DNA of 20,000 bases, from the IMG/VR virus record IMGVR_UViG_3300012956_000003, positions 49,035 to 69,034 of that record, one strand, 5' to 3'. Made by a program: the position numbers and the translations under genes. Positions 1 to 18,317 of this stretch are shown here, piece after piece. Source of the stretch: an uncultured virus (IMG/VR IMGVR_UViG_3300012956_000003) (taxonomy: Duplodnaviria > Heunggongvirae > Uroviricota > Caudoviricetes). Position 1 is the first letter of the stretch. Each line of letters opens with the position of its first letter. Under the pieces are notes generated by a model, which saw only the letters and a program-made list of their open reading frames with translations, was not told the DNA's origin and made no database searches.

Positions 1-1566
1 CTCCTGAATACCTTGCCCGAAGGTGAGGCACGGCGCGTCCTCGTCGTCTGCCCGGCATCCCTGCGGGTGAACTGGCAACGCGAGCTACAGCGGTGGAGTA
101 TCCGCCCTCTTCGGATTGGTATCGTGGAGGGCTCGAGATTCCCCGAGGGTGACCTCGACGTGGTCATCATCAATTACGACGTGCTCACCCGGCACTTGCC
201 GGTGCTATCCGCCCGTCAGTGGAATGTGCTGATCGCGGACGAGGCACACTACGCCAAGAACAGCAAAGCCCAACGGACCAAGGCACTCCTCGCCATCCCG
301 GCACGGCGGAAGGTGGCTCTCACCGGCACGCCGATATGCAACCGCCCGAGCGAGTTCTGGTCCCTGGCCCACTGGCTCGCCCCCGCCGAGTTCACTAGCT
401 GGAAGCGGTACGGCGACAGGTACTGCGCACCCACGGCAGTGTGGACTGGCTCAGGCATGGTTACGACGTATACCGGCGCGGCGAACCTGGAAGAGCTACA
501 GGCCAGGGCCAGGGGCTCGTTCATGGTGCGCCGCCTCAAGTCCGAGGTACTCACCGAGTTGCCCGCCAAGAGGCGCCAGATCATCCCGCTGGCCTGGAAT
601 GGTGCGAGTGCCGCCGTCAAAAGGCTCAACGCCGAATGGGAAGCCAGGGAAGCTAAAGTCGCGACCCTCCGGGTTGCTGCTCTCGGGGCGGCAACGGACG
701 AGGAGTACAAGGAAGCCGTCAAGGCCCTCTCGGACGCCGAGAAGATCGCGTTCGAGGAGATCTCCACGGCGCGGCGAGAGCTGGCTATCGAGAAGTGCCC
801 GAAGGCTATCGAACATATCTCGGACCTCTTGGACGAGGAACGCAAGGTATGCGTGTTCGCCCATCACCATGCCGTGGTCAAGCTTCTGGCCGAGGGGCTC
901 GCCGAGTTCAAGCCGGTCGTTCTGACCGGCGAGACCTCGATGCGTGACCGCCAGGCGGCAGTCGACAGCTTCCAGAACGACCCGAACGTCCGGGTGTTCA
1001 TCGGGAGCATCATGGCCGCCGGAGTCGGCTTGACCCTCACGGCAGCCTCGACGGCAGTCTTTGTGGAACTGGATTGGGTGCCGGGCAACGTCACCCAGGC
1101 CGAGGACAGACTGCACCGGATCGGGCAGACGGCTCCCGTGCTGATTCAGCACTTGGTGTTCGATGACAGCCTTGACTCCCACCTGGCGAAGGTACTCGTC
1201 GAGAAGCAGGAAGTCATCGACCGTGCCCTCGATAAGGGCCTGGTCCTGCCGGAACTGGCAGCCCTGGCCGCCGATCCGCTCCCCGCGAAGGTGGGCGTTC
1301 CCCGAGCGTTCCCCAGCGTTTCCCCGGACCTCCGGGCAGCGGTCCACGAGGCACTCGCGTTCCTGGCCGCCCACTGCGACGGGGCACGCACCCAGGACGG
1401 CATGGGCTTTAACCGAATGGACGCAGCCTTCGGGCGGCAGCTAGCGCTTCTTTCGACCCTCACCGACCGACAGGCCCTCGCCGGCCAGCGGGTGATCCGG
1501 AAATACCGCGCCCAGTTAGGGGCGGAACTCGCGGCCCGCGCGGGAGTCGCGGGGAAAGAGGAGTAA
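1..1566 (+). CDS. SNF2-family helicase, SMARCAL1/HARP (annealing helicase)-like; 5'-truncated by the window edge
   Basis: The frame is open from base 1 (LLNTLPEGEARR...) and lacks a Walker A motif, so the true start lies upstream. SF2/SNF2 motifs are visible: VLVVCPASLRVNW (Ia), LIADEAHYAKN (II), LTGTP (III), FMVRRLKSEVLTELP, VFAHH, AAGVGLTLTAA (V), QAEDRLHRIGQ (VI). Motif V-VI wording matches the SMARCAL1/ZRANB3-like subgroup from my knowledge of the family. Stop TAA at 1564-1566. Confidence 0.92.
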   Translation, partial: LLNTLPEGEARRVLVVCPASLRVNWQRELQRWSIRPLRIGIVEGSRFPEGDLDVVIINYDVLTRHLPVLSARQWNVLIADEAHYAKNSKAQRTKALLAIPARRKVALTGTPICNRPSEFWSLAHWLAPAEFTSWKRYGDRYCAPTAVWTGSGMVTTYTGAANLEELQARARGSFMVRRLKSEVLTELPAKRRQIIPLAWNGASAAVKRLNAEWEAREAKVATLRVAALGAATDEEYKEAVKALSDAEKIAFEEISTARRELAIEKCPKAIEHISDLLDEERKVCVFAHHHAVVKLLAEGLAEFKPVVLTGETSMRDRQAAVDSFQNDPNVRVFIGSIMAAGVGLTLTAASTAVFVELDWVPGNVTQAEDRLHRIGQTAPVLIQHLVFDDSLDSHLAKVLVEKQEVIDRALDKGLVLPELAALAADPLPAKVGVPRAFPSVSPDLRAAVHEALAFLAAHCDGARTQDGMGFNRMDAAFGRQLALLSTLTDRQALAGQRVIRKYRAQLGAELAARAGVAGKEE

Positions 1567-3270: not shown

Positions 3271-6200
3271 CTACTTGGGCTCCCTTTTCTTTTCTCTGTC
3301 GTTCGTCAGGATGATCACCCGTCGCTGGAAGCCCCGGATCTGGTTTGTCAGGTCGTCGAGGATGCGCTTCCGCTCTGCCGGGTCCTTGGTCATCATCTGG
3401 GAGATCTTGGCCCGCTTCTGCTGAAGGTCGTCGATCTTTGCCTTCAGCTTGGTGATCGCCGTGGCGAAGCCGATGTCCCGCTTCTCGATGTACTCACGGA
3501 GCATGAGCGGGTCGGTCCTCTTGAGTTGCTTCTTCGAGGAGACCGCAGTCTCGGCCTTCTCGGCAATCTCGCTGAAGGTCTCGGAGGCGAACCCGGTCCC
3601 CCGGTTCTCGGGCGGGAAGAACCGGCGGCGCCCGAGGAGGTCCTGGGCCGGGTGGTACTCGCCCTTCGGCATCTCCCGCTTGGTTCCCTCGCTGTAGGCA
3701 CGGTCGGCCAGGTTGTAGAAGTCTCGGAGCCCGACCTGATTTGCCAGGAAGGCGATCTGGTCCGGGCCGGGCACGGCACCTTTGACGTTGGTGCCGAGGG
3801 CTTCCGCCGCCTTCGTGTCGTCGATCTTCTCGGCGGCGCTGAACATCCCCTGCGACAGGTCTTTCGAGAGTTGCCCGGTGCGGTAGCCCTGCCTCAACGG
3901 AGCGTCCATCTTCCGCTGGTACTCCATCTCGATCTTCCCGCCGTAGAACGGGTCGGTATTGAACTTCAGGCCGAGGTAAGCGTTGATCCAGGGGGAGAGC
4001 CCACCCGCCTTCAGTTCGTTGCCGAGACCCTTGGCGACCCGGCCCAGCGGCTTGTAGTCCACTTCCTTCTGGGCGTCGTAGACGTGCGGGTCTTTGTTGA
4101 ACATGGCCCGAACGGGCTTGATCAGGTTCTCTTCCAAGTACTCGGGCTTCTCCTCGTACAGGGCGTCGAGCATCGCCTCGGGGATCGTGGAGAAGACCGT
4201 TGACCAGGTGAATGCTTTGGGCTGGGCGACCACCTTGCCCCGGATCGCCTCGGGAAGCTCAGGGATGTTCGGGGTGCGGATGTAGTTGTAATACAGCCCG
4301 TTCTTCCCCTTGCGCTGCTCCTCGATGGTGTCGTCACCCTTGTTTAGGGCCCAGAGAATCATGGTCGGGACGGTCTGCCACAGGAAGGCCTTTGCCATGA
4401 CCTCGGCGGCTGCCTTCGGGTTCCTCTTCCCGCTGATCGGGTCGTACCCGGTCATCGTGAGGTAGAACTTCCGGCTGGACTGGAGCCCGGCGTTGAGGAA
4501 GGGCAGGAAGCGGTTCGCATCCCTGATCCACTTGGCTGACCCGAAGGTCGCGAAATTGGTGGTGTTCTCCCGGGCGTAGGTTCCGGCGACGAGGTCGTTC
4601 CGGCCAGCCTTCAGGGTCTGCCGGGCGACAGCCTTCCTCGTGGCTGACTCGAAGGGGGCCTTCCCCTTCTCGATGATCTCCAGCCAGTTGTCGAGGAAGT
4701 GTCCCCACTTGAGTTGGCCAGGCTTGAGGTAGTGAATGACCCCGCCGGCCTTAGTGCCGTGGGCAATGGACTCCCGGATCTGGTCAAAGACAGCTTCCTT
4801 GGTCTCGAAGTCGTGAGCCGACATGTTCGAAAACATCCCGGCGGACCTCTGGTACATCGCCTGGAAGCGGGCCTCGTCGATGCTCGGTGCCTTCCCGAAA
4901 GCGGAGCCGATGGCTCGGCCAGCGTCCCGTGCGATCTCGACGAGGGGAAGGATTCGTCCAGTGAACGGCTGCGCCAGTACACGCCTGGCTAGCCCGCCGG
5001 TCCCCCTGGTCTGCATGGTGCCGGTTGCGGGGTCGCGGACCATCTGAGCCATCTGGAACGCGGGCATCCCGGTCACCATCCACTTCAAGAACGAGGTGGG
5101 GTGGGTCGCCAAGGCAGTCAGTGCCCGGACGGTCTTGCTGTTCGAGGGCGCGTCCGGCACCCGGTTGAGGGCAGTCAGAAAGTCTCGAACGACCCCGTCG
5201 ACCTTGAGTTCCTTGACCTTGCCGTCGACGACGACGCTCACGACCGAGGTGCTCTTGTCGAAGTCATGGCGTGGTTCGATGAGCACACCGAGTTGATTCG
5301 CCTCGTCGACCGAGAGCGTCTTGCCTTGGGCCTTCGCCCGGCGCGTGACGATCTCACCCTCAGGGGTGAGCCCTTGGGCCGGAGCCAACGGGGTGTGCTT
5401 CTTCTTGGCCGGCTCGGCGATGCCACCGAGGGCACCCTCGATGGAGTTCTGCATCCGCCAGAGGTTGGCGGCTGCCATATTGCGGTCCACCTGGCTGATC
5501 CAGCGATGGGTGCGGTCGATGGCTTGCCAGATCTCGTCGACGACAGGGCGCTTGGAGCCTTTGATGTTCCGGAGGGGCGACCCGGTCCCGGCTTTGTTAC
5601 CGGCACCGTCGCCGCCCGTCTCCTGCTCAAAGAGACGCTCCATCGGGGAGAAGTGGGGCCACCGTTTCTTCAGGGCAGCCCAGACTCCTGCGTCGATGGC
5701 TCCCTTGGAGACCGCGTAGTCACCGAGGGAGTTGAAGTACGCCGTGAGTTGCTCGGACTTCTTGACGATGTCCGCCTGTCTCGGGTCGTTCCTGACCGCA
5801 TCCACGAAGGCCTGCATCTCGGCTCGGGTGTAGCCGGTGCCGTGCTCGACTCCGGCTGCGTCGAGGTCGAGTGCGTGCTGGAACTGCCGAAAGTCATTCA
5901 GACGGTTCGCCTTGTCCTTACCCATACCAGAGAGGATGGACTTGAGGCTGGAGACGTACTCGGTCTGGCCTTGGCTATTGACGTAGGTCGCGAACTCAAA
6001 CTTCCCGGTCTGCCGGTTAAGGATGATAGGTCCGACCTCTACCTCCTGGCCGTTCGAGAGCTTGACTTTGCTGCCACCGGAGCCGACTCCCTTGATGAAG
6101 AGGTTCTCGGTTCCGGCGGACTTGGCATCCTTGGCCACGAGGACGGGGGAATCCCACTCGTCCTTGTAGATGAGGTCGGGATTCGTTCCGATCGGGAACT

Positions 6201-9200
6201 TGTCGTACCCGCGCTCGCGCCAACCGGTCTTGCGCTCAATCTCCGCCATCTCCCAGGTCTCGTCGAAGAGAGCATCGGTTACCCTGGTGGCCTCGCCGAG
6301 GTCCGCACGTTTACGCGGGCCGGGGATGCCGCGACGACGCTGGAGGTCGTCGGCCATGGCTTGGAGGTGCGGCGGGAGCTGGGCTGCACGGGAGGCGAAC
6401 CTGATGTCCGGGTTCTCCGGGTCGAACGTCCCACGGTTGCCGGTCGCGGACTTGATCTGGGCGGGGTCGAAGGCGATGTAGGAGGTCCCGCCCTCCACCT
6501 CGTTCTGGTAAACAACCCCATCGTGGCCGGCTTTCACTAGCCTCCGTTTGAAACTGTCTGCCATCTCCTCGGCGAGTTCGTACCAAGGGGCGCCATCGCC
6601 GGAATCGGCTGTCCTCTCTAGTTCAAGGGCCTCCTCGTTGACCTGTTTCCTGAAGTCAGAGTCCTCTGAGTACCGGGCTCCATCTTCGTCGCCCCTCCGG
6701 TACAGCACGTCCTCGATAACCGGGGCGTTGTACTCGCCACGCATCATCTCGTCTCGCATCGCGGAGTCGGACGATTCGTACGGCTTCCTGATCTTGAGCC
6801 ACGCCCCGTAGACCCGTCCGTTTTCCGGTACTCCAGAGCGTTCCCCGTAAAGGCCAGAGGCAAACTTGCCCGCCACGTTTGGTTCCGCCGCGAAGTGGCT
6901 GCCGAGATACGTGGTCGGGTCGGGTCCGCTTCCAACCCGATCATCAGCCACCCGTCGCCCGGTGGCGAACTTACCGAAGTCCTCTGGGGCGGTCGTCCCA
7001 TGGTAAACAACCAGCGGCTTCCCGTCCTTGTCGACGACCTTGGAATCTCCGAACCACTTCTTGAACTCGGGAGTCTCGGCTTGCCGGGAGGCGAACAGCG
7101 GCAGCCCTTGCTTCGCTACCTCGCGGGCCTTCGGGGTGAGGTCGATGGAGTGAACGTCGACGAGGCCTTCGCCCGTGTCGATCTTCGACATCCCAACCTT
7201 CATTGAGGGGTCCAGCTTCTTGGCGAGGTCCTGCACCTTGGTCGGCAGCATCGCGTCGTAGAAGCCCTTCATGCCCTCGCCACCGACCTTGAGGTCGAGG
7301 CCAGAGAGGGTCTTCGCGCCGGACATGTGCCTGTCCCCCGCCGGGAACCCATCCCCACGCACTATTTTCTCGGCGACCTCCTTACCGAGGAAGTCAGGGA
7401 GAGCGGACTCAGCAAGGGTCTGGCTAGCTATGTTCCTGCCACTTAGGTCAGCGACGGACACGGAGTACTTGCCAGTTCGTTCGTCACGAAGGTAGGTGAC
7501 CTCGCTGACCTGCTTGGACAAATCGTATCTCTCCGCTTGGGTGGCTCCAGTTGCCCACGTCACCTTGTCGAATCCGTTGTCCGCAGCCCAGCGGACGATT
7601 CGTTTGAGAGCAAGCTCGGGCCAGGTCTTCTTGAAGGGGGCGTCGGGGACAGCGTCCCTGTCCTTGAACCCGGAAGCGAGACGGATGGCCTCGGCTGGGG
7701 AGTTTGCCGATCGCTCCGTACTGACAACATTCCCGACAGAATCCCTTACTTCATATTCTGGTAGTCCAGTAATCGGTGATTTTGGACGAACGACGTTAGC
7801 CACCCAGCCGGTTGTGTCGGTGGGCCCAGTAGCGTACCCCTGCTTCCTCCCCTTCTGGTGCCAGTCGCTCTGGATCTCCTCGACGTGCAGGATGCGCTCG
7901 CCGTTGGGCCCAGTGCGCTCGTTCAGACGGACGTGGGCGAGGACGTTGGGCTCACTGAAGTGCTGGGACTGGAAGCCGTGGCCCTTGTTTTCCAGGGCGG
8001 CAAGTTGGTTCTCTAGTTCCCGTAACTTGTCGCTGGCTTCAGTGCGTATCTCTGACATTCGGTCGGCATGCTCCGGATGTTCTCTCCCGTACCTCTCTGC
8101 TTGGCGGAACATTTCCTTCTGAGCGGTCCTCTCCTCTTCTAGCCTCTTGCGTTCTGGAACAGTCGCGTCTGGGAGGGTGAGTAGAAGTTCACGGTAGTTC
8201 TTGCCACCGGGGAGGGTGTAGTTCTCGTACTTGGTGCCGCCCACAGAAAGACCGTGTTTGTCGACGTGTGTCAGCACGTACGCCTGCGCCTCTTCCAGCG
8301 AGTGGAACCTTTTGTTCTGCCCACGGGCTGGGTCCGAGAAGATGTAGGTATCCTTTTTCTTCTCTATTTGGGCCCAGCGACCATGGCCGAACTTGGCCAC
8401 CCAATGGTTTGGCCCATCTGGTTCCCATTCGGGAACACCCCCCTTGATTTTCTCCTCAACCTTCACCTCGTTCTGGTCGAGGTGATCGAGGATCTCTTGC
8501 TTGGTGACCGACTCCTTACCCTTGAGCAGGTCCTCGATCCGGGACCACTCCATTTCCTCGGGCTTGACTCCCTTGGCTTTGAGGGCACGGAGGAGTTCGC
8601 CAGTGCGCCACTTACCCTGGCCAGCCTCGATCTCCCTGCGAAGCTTCGAGTAGTAGACCGGGGCTTCCTTCTCTACGCCTTCGGCCCCTCGGGAGGAGTA
8701 CTTGGGCGCTCCCACGACATCTTGTACGGGCTGCGCGCCCTCCACTCCTGCACTTCCTGCTCGCTCGCCACCGGCTCGTCCGTCCTGTACCCCTTCGCCT
8801 CCGGGTCGTAAACCATCCCAGGAATATCCTTCTCCGCCATCTGGCGCCTCCCTCGTGGGAGCGAACTCCTCACCCGCATATCGTAACGCAGTTTTACCTG
8901 ATGGGTCTATACCATACTGATGTCGCACCCTATCCATCTCTGCCATATGGATAGCAAACGATTCCGGGGAGTGTGCATTCTGTTCGGCGAACAGGTCGTT
9001 GAACCCCTTCTTGATCTCGGCGAGGGTGAGGTCGCGCCCGGCCCGGGAGTCACCTTCCTGATAGGTGACCTTGCCAACGAGATCGGCTGGCTTCCTGGCC
9101 CACTTCCTGAAGAGTTCCATGCTCTTCTGGTCCGGGGTGAAGAGGTCGACGTTCCGCCTGCCGTAGTAGGTAAAGCTCCCATGCGGTAGGTTCCGGCGGA

Positions 9201-12200
9201 CTCCCTGCTCGGCCAGGGCTGCGTGCGCCCTGCGCTGGATGGAGCCGCGCTCCGTGTGAACCATCAGCCGGTCGACCGTGTCTTCACGCGAACGGTCAGT
9301 GGGCTTCTTCGTTTCGTCGATCGAAGTAATCTTCGGGTTCCATGCTCCGAGAACGTGCCCCCGTTCGAGTTCGTAGAGCAGGGCGGGCGTTCCGTCCGGG
9401 TTGGCCACGATGAGCACGCCTGTCCTCTTCCCGCTACCCGGAACCCACTTAGTCAGGGTCTTCTTGTCGAGCCCCTCGACCTTCTTCCCTGCTTCGATCC
9501 CGACTCTCTGGGCGGCTGTCTTGCCACGGTCGATGACTCCGGCGGGGCCGGTCCTGGCATCGGCCACGTTCAGCCACCAATCGCCCGGCGCCATGTCCCG
9601 CTGGAGATCCCCGGTTGCCGTCCGCATCGAGAACTTGGGTTCAGAGGCGGGCTTGATCCCAGTCCTCTCGATGGTCTCCGCAAGTCGCTGCCGCCTAGCC
9701 GCCAGTTCAGCCCTCACCCCGTCGAGTCCACTGCGTAATCTGGTTGCCTCGGCCACCCCATCCAGATCCAGGGGAAGTTTCTTGATGCGCGCCTCCATGC
9801 GCGCCTCGTATTCCTTGGCAGTTTTCTCCACCTTGGCCAAGGACTTCTCGGCGTCCGCAACCGCTGGATCACTGGCGTTGTACCGGGTCTTCCTGAGTTC
9901 CGTCAGTCGATCCTGCCATGTCGGAGCTGGCGCACGCAACTCGTTGATACGCCCAGCCGCTTCCTTCTCTGCGGTCAGACGTTCGGCCTTTTGTTTCTCC
10001 CATTCCTGGGTATCCGACTTGCGCTGTTCGTCTGCCTGCCTCTCGGCTTCCTCCCACTTCTTGACATCAGCATCTTGCTGGGCCTCGGCAGCGGATCTCA
10101 GATCTTCCGGGCTCCCCGGCACCGGAGGCGGCGGAGCAGGTTCAGGCCCAGCAGGCTTCTTCATCAGCCCACGAAGCTCTTCCAGTTCCTTATGGATCGT
10201 CTCGGCTTTTTCCTTGAGTTCCCGGGCCTCCAGTTTCCCGACGTTCGTCGACTGATCCACGGCTGCAATCTGTTTATCGAGGTCAGCCAGTTGTTTGGCC
10301 GCTGTCTCCTCGTGCTGCTTCATCTGCTCGGCGGCATCCGCCTGCACCCGATGAAGGTCACGCTCGGACTGGTCGAGGGCCTCAGCTACCGGCTTCATGT
10401 CCGCGACCGGCGTCTTCGCCTTGTCCATCTCGGCGTACTGCTTCTTCAGAGCAGCGTTCTGGGTGGCTACCTCGCGCAGCTTGCCCACCGCATCCACGGG
10501 GGCTGGGGCCGGGGGTGCCTCGGCTGCGGGCTCCTTGCCTCGGGCGATCTCCTCCGCCGTGTACAGCGGGTTCGGTGGCTTCGCCCCAGTCATATCGAAC
10601 CTGCCCTCGGCGATGTCCCGCGCCACGTCAGCGGCAGACTTCTTCCCGGTAAGCAGGAACTTCGCGGTCTCGAACCACTGGTTCCGACGAGCCTTGGCCA
10701 CCTGTTCCGGCGAGCCAAGGATCATGGTGTCCGTATAGAGGCGGCCCAGCCCACGGTCCTTGATCTCGGCCATCGCTTCCCGGTCGCCCTTCTTCGCCTT
10801 CTCGAAGACATCGAGGATGTTCGGCATTGGACCGTTCTTGATTCTGTAGATCTGCTCGATCGACTGCTCGTAGCTACTCGACGTTCCGAGCGTCCGCTCC
10901 ACCAGTTCCGGGAAGGCCTCGATCCCCTTGGCTGCCTTGTCTAGGCGTCCGATCTGGTCGGCAATGTTCTTCTGCGCCTCGGGCGGGGCTGTCGCCTGCC
11001 GTTCCACGAGTTCGGCCCTGAGCTTCGCGATGCTCGCCGTGTCTTGGATCGCCCCGTGTTCCAGCCCGAGTTCCTTCTCGATGTCCCGGAGTGAGCCAGT
11101 GAGTGCGCCCATGTCCGTCAGGAGGTGGGTCTGCTCGTGCTTGATCAGGCCCATGTCCGTCTTGGCCACGAGGTGGATCGTCGGGGGCGCTCCTGCCGCA
11201 GGCGGGGTGATCCAAGCGTCGTGCGCCTTCTTCTCCCCGGTGGCCGGGTCGACTTCAACCTTGACGTCCTCGGGCTTGACGAACTTGACGCGAGCCAGGT
11301 CGAGGCTATTGCCCTGCCGGATTCCATAGAGTCCGTCGCCGTGGTCGACAACCCGCTTCCCGATGAAGGCTTCCTTTACGAAGTCCTTCTGAATCTTCGC
11401 GTCCGTCAGGTCGTACGCTGGCATCCGGGTCCGCTGCCGGTACTGGGCAATCCCAGGCTTGGTTCGCCAAGCTTCGCCACTGAGGCGCCCGCCCCTGTGG
11501 ATGTCCGGCAGGGAGATATCCCCTCTGGACTGCCCAAGTTGGTGCTTGGCCATCATGAACAGCATCGCCGCGCTCGTGATGTCCGGGAGGATCTCCTGGA
11601 GTTTCTTCTGGTCACCTGTCCGGAAGAACTCCTCGCCACCCTGCGTGATCCGGTCGAAGTTCTGCGGTAGTTCCTTTGCCATCTGGTACGTGTAGTACGC
11701 ACCCACCGCCCGGTGCATCAACGGCTCGTTGACCACGGTCTTCGCCGCTGTGCCCAGGATATCTGCCTTGATACGCTTGGTCGTCGCCGTGCGTGCCGGG
11801 CTATCCCACCAGCCCTTTCCGGGGATCAGCCCTGGGTTCACGTCAGAAGTCAAGAGGTTTCTGATCCCACCCCAGGCGCCCTCGACAGCTTCTGGCGTTT
11901 CAAGTCCCGCTTGCTTCACAGCAGACGAGGTCGCCGCATCCTTCAGGGTCTTCGCCTCGGCGAGAGCAGCGTTGTGTTCCGCACCAGCCCTTGCCGCCCC
12001 TTCGCGCCACCGCTGGGCCACGCTCGTCTCACCGAGCCCGGTGATCGAACTGACCTCGCCGCCACGTTTGGCTGCCTTGACGATGGCACCCGGCGCTTTC
12101 ATCAGGGCCAAGTTCGTTGGCGTGATGAGTGCCTCGGCCAGCCCCGCTCCCGCTTGGTGCGCTGTGTTGATTCCCTCAGCGACGTTCTCCACCACCTTGG

Positions 12201-13191
12201 CTCCGGTATCGAATATCTTGGCCTGCCGCATCGTCCGGGCGTGTGTGTCCGGCAACTTATACGGGGCGGTCTCACCCGTCCGCTTCGCCTCCGCCCGCTG
12301 CCGTTCGATGTCCTCCGCGAAGTCGGCGTTGATCCCCTGCCGAACCTTACCTATGCCCTCTCTGGCCAACTCCACACCGTAGTCGCCGATAGCTTTCGTA
12401 GCCTCGACGGCTCGCGGAGTAAAGAGCGTTTCGCCGTACTCGTAGAGGGCTTTCGGAAGTGAGCCAGAGGCTACCGCGAACTTCTTGCCGGCCTGATACA
12501 GGCGTCCCGGCATGGTCTGCTTCACGGCTGCGTCGATGAACCCACCGGGGGTTGTCGGCTTCTCGTCGATGGTCCCACTCAGGGAGTTCGCCACCCCTTG
12601 GAGTTCTTCAAGACTTGGGAACTTCACCCTCTTCTCGGACGGGTCTTCGAGGCCCCGGGCGAGGATTGGGTTCGCTCGGCCACCGATGGCCGTGCTGAGT
12701 CGAGGACTCTGAACACCGAGGAATCCGCCCTTCTCGATCCACGGTTCGTCTTCTCTGGGCAGAGTGAGTCCTGCCTCGCGCTCGTCAAGGTGGGCTACCT
12801 GCTGGTCAGCCTTGGCACCGATGGCACCGCCACGGTACTCGGGCGTGCTAGGCAGGTGCCTCTTGGCTTCCTGCGCTACGGCTCCGTACTTCCGGACAGC
12901 CTTCTCCAACACGTCCTGATCCGGCACTTTGAGTGGGGCCCCACCCCACTCCTCCTCAACCGGCTTGACGTTCGTGGCCCGAGGGATCGAGAGCCCCTTG
13001 TTCTTGTCCTTGCCGGGGCCCTCGGTCAGATACCACTGGCGAGCGGTTCCCTTGGAACGCATCGCTTCCGGGGGAACCCGGATAGGCTCCGTCAGGCTGG
13101 GGTCCAGTTTGCTGAAATCAACCAAGGCCCCTTGGTTCGTGTCGACCAGGACATCATCCTCGTCAGTCAGGGAACCCCAGTACTTGGGCAT
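3271..13191 (-). CDS. giant polyvalent protein / internal virion (ejection) protein, 3306 aa: HExxH metallopeptidase, coiled coil, unknown module, EEIQSDWHQ module, ART-PolyVal ADP-ribosyltransferase, LPD38-like C-terminus
   Basis: Uninterrupted 9.9-kb ORF with GGAG RBS, starting 3 nt after the upstream TAA. HEQTH at 11125-11139. TPEFKKWFGDSKVVDKDGKPLVVYHGT...GHDGVVY...YIAFDPAQIKSATGNRGTFD (about 6394-7077) is the typical ART-PolyVal signature. ARENTTNF...NRFLPFLNAGLQ...NTDPFYGGKI (about 3850-4600) resembles LPD38-region sequences. Confidence 0.9.
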   Translation of the reverse strand: MPKYWGSLTDEDDVLVDTNQGALVDFSKLDPSLTEPIRVPPEAMRSKGTARQWYLTEGPGKDKNKGLSIPRATNVKPVEEEWGGAPLKVPDQDVLEKAVRKYGAVAQEAKRHLPSTPEYRGGAIGAKADQQVAHLDEREAGLTLPREDEPWIEKGGFLGVQSPRLSTAIGGRANPILARGLEDPSEKRVKFPSLEELQGVANSLSGTIDEKPTTPGGFIDAAVKQTMPGRLYQAGKKFAVASGSLPKALYEYGETLFTPRAVEATKAIGDYGVELAREGIGKVRQGINADFAEDIERQRAEAKRTGETAPYKLPDTHARTMRQAKIFDTGAKVVENVAEGINTAHQAGAGLAEALITPTNLALMKAPGAIVKAAKRGGEVSSITGLGETSVAQRWREGAARAGAEHNAALAEAKTLKDAATSSAVKQAGLETPEAVEGAWGGIRNLLTSDVNPGLIPGKGWWDSPARTATTKRIKADILGTAAKTVVNEPLMHRAVGAYYTYQMAKELPQNFDRITQGGEEFFRTGDQKKLQEILPDITSAAMLFMMAKHQLGQSRGDISLPDIHRGGRLSGEAWRTKPGIAQYRQRTRMPAYDLTDAKIQKDFVKEAFIGKRVVDHGDGLYGIRQGNSLDLARVKFVKPEDVKVEVDPATGEKKAHDAWITPPAAGAPPTIHLVAKTDMGLIKHEQTHLLTDMGALTGSLRDIEKELGLEHGAIQDTASIAKLRAELVERQATAPPEAQKNIADQIGRLDKAAKGIEAFPELVERTLGTSSSYEQSIEQIYRIKNGPMPNILDVFEKAKKGDREAMAEIKDRGLGRLYTDTMILGSPEQVAKARRNQWFETAKFLLTGKKSAADVARDIAEGRFDMTGAKPPNPLYTAEEIARGKEPAAEAPPAPAPVDAVGKLREVATQNAALKKQYAEMDKAKTPVADMKPVAEALDQSERDLHRVQADAAEQMKQHEETAAKQLADLDKQIAAVDQSTNVGKLEARELKEKAETIHKELEELRGLMKKPAGPEPAPPPPVPGSPEDLRSAAEAQQDADVKKWEEAERQADEQRKSDTQEWEKQKAERLTAEKEAAGRINELRAPAPTWQDRLTELRKTRYNASDPAVADAEKSLAKVEKTAKEYEARMEARIKKLPLDLDGVAEATRLRSGLDGVRAELAARRQRLAETIERTGIKPASEPKFSMRTATGDLQRDMAPGDWWLNVADARTGPAGVIDRGKTAAQRVGIEAGKKVEGLDKKTLTKWVPGSGKRTGVLIVANPDGTPALLYELERGHVLGAWNPKITSIDETKKPTDRSREDTVDRLMVHTERGSIQRRAHAALAEQGVRRNLPHGSFTYYGRRNVDLFTPDQKSMELFRKWARKPADLVGKVTYQEGDSRAGRDLTLAEIKKGFNDLFAEQNAHSPESFAIHMAEMDRVRHQYGIDPSGKTALRYAGEEFAPTREAPDGGEGYSWDGLRPGGEGVQDGRAGGERAGSAGVEGAQPVQDVVGAPKYSSRGAEGVEKEAPVYYSKLRREIEAGQGKWRTGELLRALKAKGVKPEEMEWSRIEDLLKGKESVTKQEILDHLDQNEVKVEEKIKGGVPEWEPDGPNHWVAKFGHGRWAQIEKKKDTYIFSDPARGQNKRFHSLEEAQAYVLTHVDKHGLSVGGTKYENYTLPGGKNYRELLLTLPDATVPERKRLEEERTAQKEMFRQAERYGREHPEHADRMSEIRTEASDKLRELENQLAALENKGHGFQSQHFSEPNVLAHVRLNERTGPNGERILHVEEIQSDWHQKGRKQGYATGPTDTTGWVANVVRPKSPITGLPEYEVRDSVGNVVSTERSANSPAEAIRLASGFKDRDAVPDAPFKKTWPELALKRIVRWAADNGFDKVTWATGATQAERYDLSKQVSEVTYLRDERTGKYSVSVADLSGRNIASQTLAESALPDFLGKEVAEKIVRGDGFPAGDRHMSGAKTLSGLDLKVGGEGMKGFYDAMLPTKVQDLAKKLDPSMKVGMSKIDTGEGLVDVHSIDLTPKAREVAKQGLPLFASRQAETPEFKKWFGDSKVVDKDGKPLVVYHGTTAPEDFGKFATGRRVADDRVGSGPDPTTYLGSHFAAEPNVAGKFASGLYGERSGVPENGRVYGAWLKIRKPYESSDSAMRDEMMRGEYNAPVIEDVLYRRGDEDGARYSEDSDFRKQVNEEALELERTADSGDGAPWYELAEEMADSFKRRLVKAGHDGVVYQNEVEGGTSYIAFDPAQIKSATGNRGTFDPENPDIRFASRAAQLPPHLQAMADDLQRRRGIPGPRKRADLGEATRVTDALFDETWEMAEIERKTGWRERGYDKFPIGTNPDLIYKDEWDSPVLVAKDAKSAGTENLFIKGVGSGGSKVKLSNGQEVEVGPIILNRQTGKFEFATYVNSQGQTEYVSSLKSILSGMGKDKANRLNDFRQFQHALDLDAAGVEHGTGYTRAEMQAFVDAVRNDPRQADIVKKSEQLTAYFNSLGDYAVSKGAIDAGVWAALKKRWPHFSPMERLFEQETGGDGAGNKAGTGSPLRNIKGSKRPVVDEIWQAIDRTHRWISQVDRNMAAANLWRMQNSIEGALGGIAEPAKKKHTPLAPAQGLTPEGEIVTRRAKAQGKTLSVDEANQLGVLIEPRHDFDKSTSVVSVVVDGKVKELKVDGVVRDFLTALNRVPDAPSNSKTVRALTALATHPTSFLKWMVTGMPAFQMAQMVRDPATGTMQTRGTGGLARRVLAQPFTGRILPLVEIARDAGRAIGSAFGKAPSIDEARFQAMYQRSAGMFSNMSAHDFETKEAVFDQIRESIAHGTKAGGVIHYLKPGQLKWGHFLDNWLEIIEKGKAPFESATRKAVARQTLKAGRNDLVAGTYARENTTNFATFGSAKWIRDANRFLPFLNAGLQSSRKFYLTMTGYDPISGKRNPKAAAEVMAKAFLWQTVPTMILWALNKGDDTIEEQRKGKNGLYYNYIRTPNIPELPEAIRGKVVAQPKAFTWSTVFSTIPEAMLDALYEEKPEYLEENLIKPVRAMFNKDPHVYDAQKEVDYKPLGRVAKGLGNELKAGGLSPWINAYLGLKFNTDPFYGGKIEMEYQRKMDAPLRQGYRTGQLSKDLSQGMFSAAEKIDDTKAAEALGTNVKGAVPGPDQIAFLANQVGLRDFYNLADRAYSEGTKREMPKGEYHPAQDLLGRRRFFPPENRGTGFASETFSEIAEKAETAVSSKKQLKRTDPLMLREYIEKRDIGFATAITKLKAKIDDLQQKRAKISQMMTKDPAERKRILDDLTNQIRGFQRRVIILTNDREKKREPK
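6389..7096. repeat. 12-bp direct repeat CGGGAGGCGAAC (6389-6400 and 7085-7096) bracketing the ART domain; 10/12 copy at 8690-8701
   Basis: Read directly. The copies are 696 bp (232 codons) apart and both encode FASR on the - strand. The third copy, CGGGAGGAGTAC, encodes YSSR. Confidence 0.8.
8673..8840 (-). CDS. nested alternative-frame small ORF (55 aa, MAEKDIPGMVYDPEAKGYRTDEPVASEQEVQEWRARSPYKMSWERPSTPPEGPKA); candidate immunity/antitoxin protein
   Basis: GAGGGAGG RBS 6 nt before ATG. By hand count 46/55 codons end in G/C in this frame, versus about 28/56 in the host frame over the same bases, which encodes a G/E/R-rich linker. Confidence 0.6.
   Translation of the reverse strand: MAEKDIPGMVYDPEAKGYRTDEPVASEQEVQEWRARSPYKMSWERPSTPPEGPKA
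8847..8909 (-). promoter_or_regulatory. candidate internal sigma70-like promoter (TAGACC-N18-TACGAT) and RBS (GAGGGAGG) for the nested ORF
   Basis: On the - strand: -35-like TAGACC at 8909-8904, -10-like TACGAT at 8885-8880 (each 4/6 of consensus), RBS at 8854-8847. It lies in a local AT-richer patch (8881-8940: 28/60 GC). Confidence 0.35.
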
Positions 13192-17210: not shown

Positions 17211-18317
17211 TTACCCCCTTAATCCAGCGAGAAGCTTGGCGAAGGTTTGCTCGGCGGCTTCTTCCTCGGGCTTGCGTGTTTGCCGAAGAACCTCTCCGCC
17301 GGCGAAGGGTTCCTTGAAGGCATTCGGATCTTTGTAGTATTCACCACCGGACTCACCGATCCGGTCCATCGCTTGCTGGAAGGTGGCTGGGTGCTGGCTG
17401 GCGAGGTCGCTTGTTTCGACACTCTTTCCTGGCACATGGTCGTATACCGGTCGGCGGCCCGAGTCAACGGTTCGCCCTCTCTGCCCCGGAGCCAGTTCAC
17501 CTGACCCTGGCTCTGCCCACATATCACCATGAAGTTCCGTATCACTACCCCCCGTCGTCGGCGACTCCGTTCGAGCTCCAAGCCCGGTGAGCCCCTGCTC
17601 GTCAGCCCGTCCCACGCCCGGGACCCTACGAGTGACGCCCCATGGGCGGCCAGTCTGTGGGTTTACCGAACCGCTGGGAGCACTAACCCCAGGGGTATCG
17701 TTTCGAGGTCCGCCTCCACCACCACTACCAACGGTGCTCCCGCCGCTACCACCCCCAGGGCTGTTGCCGGTGTCGTTTCCAGTCCCAGTCCCAGTCCCAG
17801 TTCCAGTTCCCGTTCCAGTTCCAGTTCCAGTTCCGGTCCCGGTCCCAGTAGGTATCGGACCGGTGGGGCCGGGGGGAGGAGGCGAGGGGGGTTGGGCACT
17901 CTTCCACGGGGGAGTCGTATTGTTCTTGTCCCAAGGCGACCAAGCCCCAATCTTTTCGGTGTACCTATTGTCTTTGTCCGGTCCATACCCGACGTAGATA
18001 TTGCTCTTGCTGTCCCATTCCCAGATGTTGCCGGAAGAGTCCTGGTAGGACGGCATCTTTTGCGTCGCCTGATTCGTGTTACCCGCAGTGATCACAGACT
18101 GAGCCTGCCTGGCGTCCAGGTCCCTGTACTCGTCGCCAAGAAACGTTCGGGCCTTCCCGTACTGTTTCCCACCAAAGATCAGGTCAGCCGCCGCCTGCTG
18201 CGTCCCGTACTGATTCGCAAGCTGTTTCAGGAGTGGACCGAATATGTCGTTTCCGACGTACGCCGTCTGGTTTGTGTGGTCCTGCTGCGCGGTTTGATCC
18301 GTTACCTGGTAGCCCAT
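17211..18317 (-). CDS. G/T/P-rich putative virion protein with (TG)12 linker (368 aa)
   Basis: GAGGTGA RBS, ATG 3 nt after the upstream TGA. Aromatic beta-hairpin-like segment YQDSSGNIWEWDSKSNIYVGY, poly-Pro, (TG)12, Gly/Ser run, C-terminal helix TFAKLLAGLRG. Confidence 0.75.
   Translation of the reverse strand: MGYQVTDQTAQQDHTNQTAYVGNDIFGPLLKQLANQYGTQQAAADLIFGGKQYGKARTFLGDEYRDLDARQAQSVITAGNTNQATQKMPSYQDSSGNIWEWDSKSNIYVGYGPDKDNRYTEKIGAWSPWDKNNTTPPWKSAQPPSPPPPGPTGPIPTGTGTGTGTGTGTGTGTGTGTGTGNDTGNSPGGGSGGSTVGSGGGGGPRNDTPGVSAPSGSVNPQTGRPWGVTRRVPGVGRADEQGLTGLGARTESPTTGGSDTELHGDMWAEPGSGELAPGQRGRTVDSGRRPVYDHVPGKSVETSDLASQHPATFQQAMDRIGESGGEYYKDPNAFKEPFAGGEVLRQTRKPEEEAAEQTFAKLLAGLRG
17778..17849. repeat. 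hexanucleotide tandem repeat, 12 x (T/C)CC(A/C/G)GT, encoding (Thr-Gly)12 on the - strand
   Basis: Read directly: tccagt cccagt cccagt cccagt tccagt tcccgt tccagt tccagt tccagt tccggt cccggt cccagt. Variation occurs only at synonymous positions of the - strand frame. Confidence 0.95.

Follow-up and report, generated by a model that had tools for sequence, protein, structure and literature searches.

The stretch of DNA analysed here (the window, 20,000 nucleotides) makes up the final 20 kb of a phage genome that is complete at 69 kb and bears terminal repeats. It carries a giant gene (3271..13191, minus strand), on the same strand as a long late-looking block, whose 3306-aa product is placed among the large polyvalent phage proteins by its size and by a polyvalent-type ART-PolyVal domain (host aa 2054-2256; 6424..7032, minus strand; E 4.3e-18). 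An LPD38-like stretch at host aa 2986-3121 (3829..4236, minus strand) scores 20.2 bits, under the Pfam cut-off of 27, whereas the LPD38 match of P0002, the relative discussed below, reaches 34.6 bits and is over it. As far as the available text of the paper describing this class goes, the host protein resembles its members in being giant and multidomain, with ART-PolyVal and an LPD38-like end; the main text contains neither the word "overlap" nor the word "linker", and no nested gene is associated there with polyvalent proteins (Iyer et al., 2017; PMC5512222). Unlike the polyvalent domains treated there, the module with which we are concerned here matches no LPD family in Pfam. Comparison of the neighbours of the giant gene with Pfam and PHROG gave no structural annotation, and the giant protein is likely, by prediction, delivered with the virion. 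Elsewhere in the window, a gene for an SNF2-type helicase (Pfam; 13-1566, plus strand) converges on the giant gene's block, and a Gly-Thr dipeptide repeat (17587-17997) is found within a 368-aa gene at 17211-18317 on the minus strand.

Inside the giant gene, over host aa 1451-1507, a second reading frame, +1 to that of the host, opens with an ATG at 8840 and closes with a TAG at 8675-8673 (8673..8840, minus strand), specifying an acidic peptide of 55 aa (pI 4.8). Position, frame and peptide are exactly as first described in a sequence-only reading of this DNA, and its further observations were borne out as well: 46 of the 55 nested codons end in G or C, the host frame falls to about 50% GC3 over the same stretch (29/57, vs 0.78 for the whole host gene), and the host codons TTA, GTA and CGA do occur there. 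The Shine-Dalgarno-like GAGGGAGG (8847..8854, minus strand), equally as noted before, stands 6 nt ahead of the ATG. Its anti-SD duplex energy of -11.4 is the third of 100 alternative-frame starts (same-strand ORFs of at least 20 codons within the host gene) and is comparable to the energies of the window's best real starts, which run from -5.1 to -12.5, with one gene at 0.1. In codon score the nested ORF is the first of the same 100 and, when 40-codon windows are moved along the host gene, the shifted frame is favoured only at the nested ORF (three windows) and, weakly, at aa 1801. Lying wholly within another gene, in a shifted frame and with its own start and ribosome-binding site (RBS), the ORF has the constitution of an embedded gene. 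A second patch of low host GC3 (0.40-0.50) occurs at 7726-7845 (host aa 1783-1822), in the domain that follows the nested gene; it holds no scoring nested ORF and looks like a recent insertion.

Such a pattern could be a chance product, if a Gly-rich and relaxed linker placed G at first codon positions and this was read as a high +1 GC3. Under gene-wide synonymous shuffling, with the host protein kept, none of 300 shuffles matched the nested codon score. When local GC3 was also preserved, the score was matched by 16 of 300 shuffles and, in a second run, by 33 of 400, figures that speak in favour of chance. This latter null is conservative, since the host residues that it holds fixed would already bear the imprint of a real nested gene, and codon score and RBS together were matched in none of the 400 shuffles of its second run.

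Furthermore, strain variants are informative on the frame that is being maintained. Contigs from three other studies (X2, X3 and X4, X6 repeating the rows of X4) span the nested ORF at 90-99% identity, with no indels among the differences listed, the variant sites being drawn from 40 of 72 match rows; among the data sets listed as carrying the sequence, none was of RNA. At least six sites vary within the nested ORF. Four of them, in codons 10, 13, 38 and 44, fall on the third base of a nested codon and leave the peptide unchanged; three of these four replace an amino acid of the host protein (G>R, V>I, A>T). In the tail, past a KYSSR motif, the two listed sites (codons 52 and 55) are silent in the host and change the peptide. 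Among the flanking sites listed, 34/38 are at host third positions and 35/38 are host-silent. The sites inside and outside the nested ORF thus differ both by codon position (Fisher p 0.007) and by silence (p 0.025), in a test that comprises six sites at a contig depth below 5, and that covers differences away from the contig ends and not the invariance of RBS, start and stop. The per-frame selection that had been proposed as a check is therefore found, on few sites and at low depth, as a switch of frame over the nested ORF. The nested frame is under selection in its own right, with a constrained core of approximately codons 1-44 and a tail past KYSSR that is not constrained in the nested frame.

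These variants bear directly on the idea that the nested frame is an untranslated fossil of a gene that formerly stood by itself, with codon pattern and RBS left over from that time. As could be expected of a relic, the peptide is without homologue in our searches, either in IMG/VR, among proteins of 30-97 aa or in phage records (eight records at E 0.9-8, none credible); it falls in no Pfam, PHROG or PADLOC family and shows little sequence conservation with its counterpart in L001, the locus of P0002. Nevertheless, a fossil would drift towards host-silent changes, and the listed core variants count against it: 4/4 are nested-silent and three change the host protein, when only 21% of all possible single changes would be silent in the nested frame. 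We therefore consider a fossil improbable.

A comparison with the only close relative adds another layer of evidence. An exhaustive search with host aa 1185-1510 over 1.84 billion proteins returned five: the window's own, P0002, two distant stand-alone proteins (P0003 and P0004) and a plant repeat protein, P0005, which was dropped as a spurious match. P0002 (3529 aa, with L001 as its DNA) is 48% identical to the window module and is the only full-length relative found; searches for others in IMG/VR beyond L001, in a metagenome scan, among proteins of 316-2000 aa and among proteins of 1818-5786 aa (the last by a word-based search that missed P0002 too) gave none. Behind the same module, L001 keeps an ATG, an RBS-like site and an open +1 frame, which is the result that had been sought from homologues. 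Its nested ORF has 64 codons, its ATG aligns with that of the window, no gap intervening between module and start, and AGAAAGGGG precedes it at 6 nt. The nested GC3 is 0.80 vs 0.42 in the host frame and the codon score is first of 95, values that are weak alone, as 41/400 local-GC3 shuffles match the score and 22/400 match it together with the RBS. In P0002 the module (aa 2224-2490) is followed directly by the C-terminal block, whereas in the window it is followed by another domain and then by ART-PolyVal. Since the aligned ATG is the same despite the different next domain, the nested ORF goes with the module upstream of it, as had been supposed earlier; a small gene lies directly behind the module and moves with it in 2/2 phage copies, and the coupling rests on these two phages. 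Between the two nested peptides, BLAST gives no local alignment. On these sequence data, it is very probable that the 55-codon frame is a real translated gene.

The reading that gave the frame its own promoter has fared less well than its claim of a real nested gene that travels with the module, which stands. The proposed TAGACC-N18-TACGAT (8909-8880) is indeed present, with 8/12 consensus bases, and the promoter scan calls no site between 8600 and 9200; the scan for promoters and terminators called none. Directly ahead of the nested start, the last 50 codons of the module (8841..8990, minus strand) form a patch of low GC3 (0.50, against 0.74-0.86 further upstream), and a dip is also seen in L001 (0.64 in the last 50 module codons); the patch is possibly a cis element. 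In this same region the +1 frame is open upstream of the ATG, from 8906 in the window and for at least 19 codons in L001, as would be needed if it served as an alternative C-terminus, reached through programmed frameshifting and yielding a truncated giant protein that terminates behind the module. For such an event neither an ATG nor an RBS is required, yet the two phages have both of them at matching places in the alignment, and RNA structure is not above that of shuffles at either start (z -0.79 in the window and -0.33 in L001), which makes frameshifting a decidedly improbable explanation.

At its other end, the nested ORF had been described as stopping at a PKYSSR module boundary. A KYSSR boundary-like motif, recognized by motif likeness, is indeed there in the host frame (aa 1497-1501; 8689..8703, minus strand), but the ORF extends five codons beyond it. 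Motifs of the form [FY]-[ST]-x-R are found at module boundaries at aa 1187, 1498, 2033 and 2265 of the window's host protein and at aa 1320, 2225 and 2529 of P0002, and in L001 a KYSSR-like motif comes after the nested start. They are possibly processing or recombination marks.

The upstream module itself (host aa 1186-1450; 8842..9636, minus strand) begins with a boundary-like KFSMR and finds no match in Pfam (E up to 1), PHROG, PADLOC or the sequences of the PDB. The ESM Atlas likewise offers no usable match for it, and for P0003 only unnamed clusters under 0.8. Its C-terminal subdomain (aa 1302-1447; 8851..9288, minus strand) is marked by the conserved motifs F-x-P-D, W-x3-P-x2-L-x-G-x-V, D-S-R-x-G-x2-L-T and P-E, and these C-terminal 146 aa also exist as stand-alone bacterial proteins (P0003, P0004 and L093-L095), P0004 containing them twice. 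A structure model of the whole module (pLDDT 36) is unusable for a fold search; that of the subdomain (pLDDT 64, core 72-90) is mainly helical, and a complex prediction for the module with the nested peptide yields no verdict (score 0.01). In two bacterial loci (L093:3497-4240 and L095:2720-3487) the subdomain gene is divergent from a two-ORF pair and another gene, which we take, from labelling by eye, to be a ribbon-helix-helix and PIN pair plus an AAA ATPase; the pair looks toxin-antitoxin-like. Behind the stand-alone subdomain gene no small gene is found in L095, the sole locus that reaches that far. We infer that the module is a candidate effector only from its place in a polyvalent protein. 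It is internal, 1850 aa from the C-terminus of the host protein, and not at the terminal position expected of a toxin.

Is the arrangement peculiar to these two phages? From IMG/VR, 80 loci with ART-PolyVal were collected, and 75 giant genes (610 kb, the window and L001 included) were scanned. Nested ORFs scoring above 5 amount to 23, in 19 loci, all of them in the +1 frame, against 0.2 and 5.6 expected under two nulls; without the window, L001 and one duplicate, 20 ORFs in 16 loci are left. In the other long ORFs of the same loci, taken as a control, 15 nested ORFs were found in 374 kb before filtering and three in 262 kb after it, none of these coding-like in the shifted frame; the filter dropped minus-strand ORFs and matches in the first 60 or last 20 codons, mostly overlaps of neighbouring genes. 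The nested ORFs are also better equipped for initiation, with ATG starts in 16/23 (vs 581/1527) and an RBS in 8/23 (vs 142/1527; rank test p 0.024). Nested +1 ORFs are a general arrangement in polyvalent genes. Chance might still be invoked here, as 1349/1550 candidate ORFs are in the +1 frame regardless; against it stand the 23 ORFs where the stricter null expects 5.6, the joint failure of the shuffles to reproduce codon score and RBS, the switch of frame among strain variants and the shared start in L001. Chance is largely refuted, and is the least probable of the explanations considered.

In 10/25 stretches upstream of nested ORFs a Pfam domain is found above cut-off (InPase, GGDEF, PRTase, ART-PolyVal, ddrB-ParB or DUF7178), and in about four it ends near the nested start. 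The nested peptides of 26 plus nine other ORFs have no PHROG match better than E 0.018, and just two Pfam families appear among them, both under cut-off (TnpV, E 0.0016; DUF3106, E 0.0024). A pairwise DNA test among nested copies found no diverged pair that spanned an ORF. Homologous upstream domains with differing nested ORFs were also observed, at L014:1701, L035:5980, L062:10479 and L058:6498, and likewise at L029:1827 and L042:6423, and at L049:6726 and L053:6720; this is the same pattern as that of the window and L001.

In two families of nested genes, A and B, conservation is higher in the nested frame than in that of the host, and a single member is a stand-alone gene. Family A comprises five nested ORFs of about 60-70 aa (L004:9639-9851, L049:3330-3509, L010:4763-4978, L087:5001-5192 and L088:5001-5204) with the motif L-P-x-W ... 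L-P-x-H-L ... E-R-L, and its members are 29-52% identical in the nested frame vs 13-45% in that of the host. It often adjoins an InPase domain and is present in 4/26 InPase loci, two of which were fetched with the peptide itself. Family B (66-87% identity in the nested frame vs 36-71% in the host frame) is nested in L066, L089, L090 and L085, the last being the cultured Pseudomonas phage 8P, and has a stand-alone member in a bacterial genome, L091; with the latter included, 437/857 differences lie at nested third positions. The domain behind family B is presumably the start of a DarB-like methylase; of the loci matching its profile, all six have a nested ORF ahead of it, and three of them were found independently of the peptide. 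In phage 8P, the nested +1 gene (about 90 aa; L085:8001-8270, record 31545-31808) is unannotated inside 8P_023, the annotation over it being only "structural protein"; its peptide is 68% identical to that of L066 and better conserved than the host frame. Moreover, two TnpV-like nested ORFs (L029:3000-3251, with TnpV at E 0.0016, and L076:2970-3158) lie ahead of a methylase-helicase-like block.

Immunity genes of polymorphic toxin systems are small, acidic and fast-changing, and are located directly behind the toxin. Being small, acidic, fast-changing and right behind its module, the nested gene fits this habit. It is somewhat more probable than otherwise that its product is a partner of the upstream module, and we put at roughly 0.4 the probability that it is a candidate inhibitor of that module, which is the main reading proposed here. 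Ribosomes would initiate internally, at the RBS of the nested gene, on the late mRNA of the giant gene, and the nested product would serve the module just upstream as a cognate partner, most probably by inhibiting it. Module and small gene might once have been a two-gene unit, swallowed when the giant ORF read through, upon which the other frame of the small gene would have come to encode linker sequence rich in Gly; bounded by two [FY]-S-x-R motifs, the unit would move as one cassette. The peptide, made in the cell where virions are built, would keep the module quiet there, and would not accompany the giant protein into the next host.

A real nested gene could also encode something other than an inhibitor, such as a chaperone, a packaging adaptor, a regulator of the module or an independent small phage protein engulfed together with it, and this is almost as probable. 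Every line of evidence for a real gene applies to it to the same extent, and the peptides of the window and L001, behind the same module, are unrelated. The class as a whole also lends itself to such roles: family B and the TnpV-like genes precede a methylase-helicase-like domain, one B member is stand-alone, and family A is found behind InPase in three loci, ahead of it in one and in its absence in another. The expectation that immunity follows toxin consequently fails as a rule for the class, in which the other nested genes precede the downstream domain or loosely flank one. On the other side, the start is kept at exactly the same position behind the module while the next domain has changed, which argues for coupling to the module, and fast divergence would suit a partner in conflict better than a chaperone. 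The reading as a candidate inhibitor is the one that we carry forward.

Several known systems share parts of this arrangement. Embedded phage genes such as Rz1 in Rz of lambda and E in D of phiX174 are same-strand genes in a shifted frame with their own RBS; Rz1 and E are lysis genes, whereas the nested gene of the window occupies the linker between two domains and comes after a module that is mobile. In polymorphic toxin-immunity pairs, including the MuF toxins of phages, a small and variable gene stands right behind the effector. The window is alike in having a small variable gene immediately behind a candidate effector, and differs in that its module is internal and that toxicity and neutralisation are predictions. 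Intragenic antitoxins exist, and in the Rpn proteins, in the available text of their description, a small variable protein is made from an internal start within a larger gene, and the antidote reading is patterned on this case; RpnS forms, in frame, the C-terminal tail of its host PD-(D/E)XK nuclease and was shown to block it (Zhong et al., 2023; PMC10400941). The nested gene of the window, in contrast, is +1-shifted, unrelated in sequence to its host protein and part of a phage gene, its inhibition is predicted, and no PD-(D/E)XK or other Pfam match is found for its module at E up to 1. In phage P1, by the accessible part of the report, iddB is an annotated ORF without assigned function nested antisense within the polyvalent-protein gene ddrB (PMC9024508). 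As a direct precedent iddB was ruled out, as it lies on the opposite strand and ddrB gives no same-strand nested codon signal (best score -10). In the literature outside subscription journals and supplements, no paper was found on same-strand nested genes in the linkers of polyvalent proteins. Thus, embedded phage genes and in-frame intragenic antitoxins were known already; the present case contributes selection at the level of strains, together with a nested gene whose location behind a new module stays fixed as its sequence changes.

In a wider perspective, polyvalent proteins may hold a second, unannotated layer of genes. Many linkers rich in Gly, Arg and Ala would arise from the reading of small cognate genes in their other frame, and these genes would silence or regulate the adjacent effector domain in the producing cell. 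Each module would then be a self-contained effector-antidote cassette, and the window would present an effector family that is new, paired with a hypervariable antidote in a shifted frame. We advance this broader proposal tentatively, as one that is rather doubtful. Gene callers drop ORFs nested in longer genes, and such genes are therefore missing from annotation; about a quarter of the scanned polyvalent genes (19/75) have a nested ORF. The nested ATG can be abolished by a one-base change that is silent in the host frame, which opens the idea to a direct test in a cultured phage, and the nested gene of 8P is the most tractable case of the class. Should the nested products act as cognate inhibitors or as regulators, this would account for the ability of phages to produce and reshuffle giant multi-effector proteins while sparing the cell that makes them; the nested products would also mark which of the uncharacterised domains are effectors, and they would supply the antidotes needed for cloning and studying effector domains.
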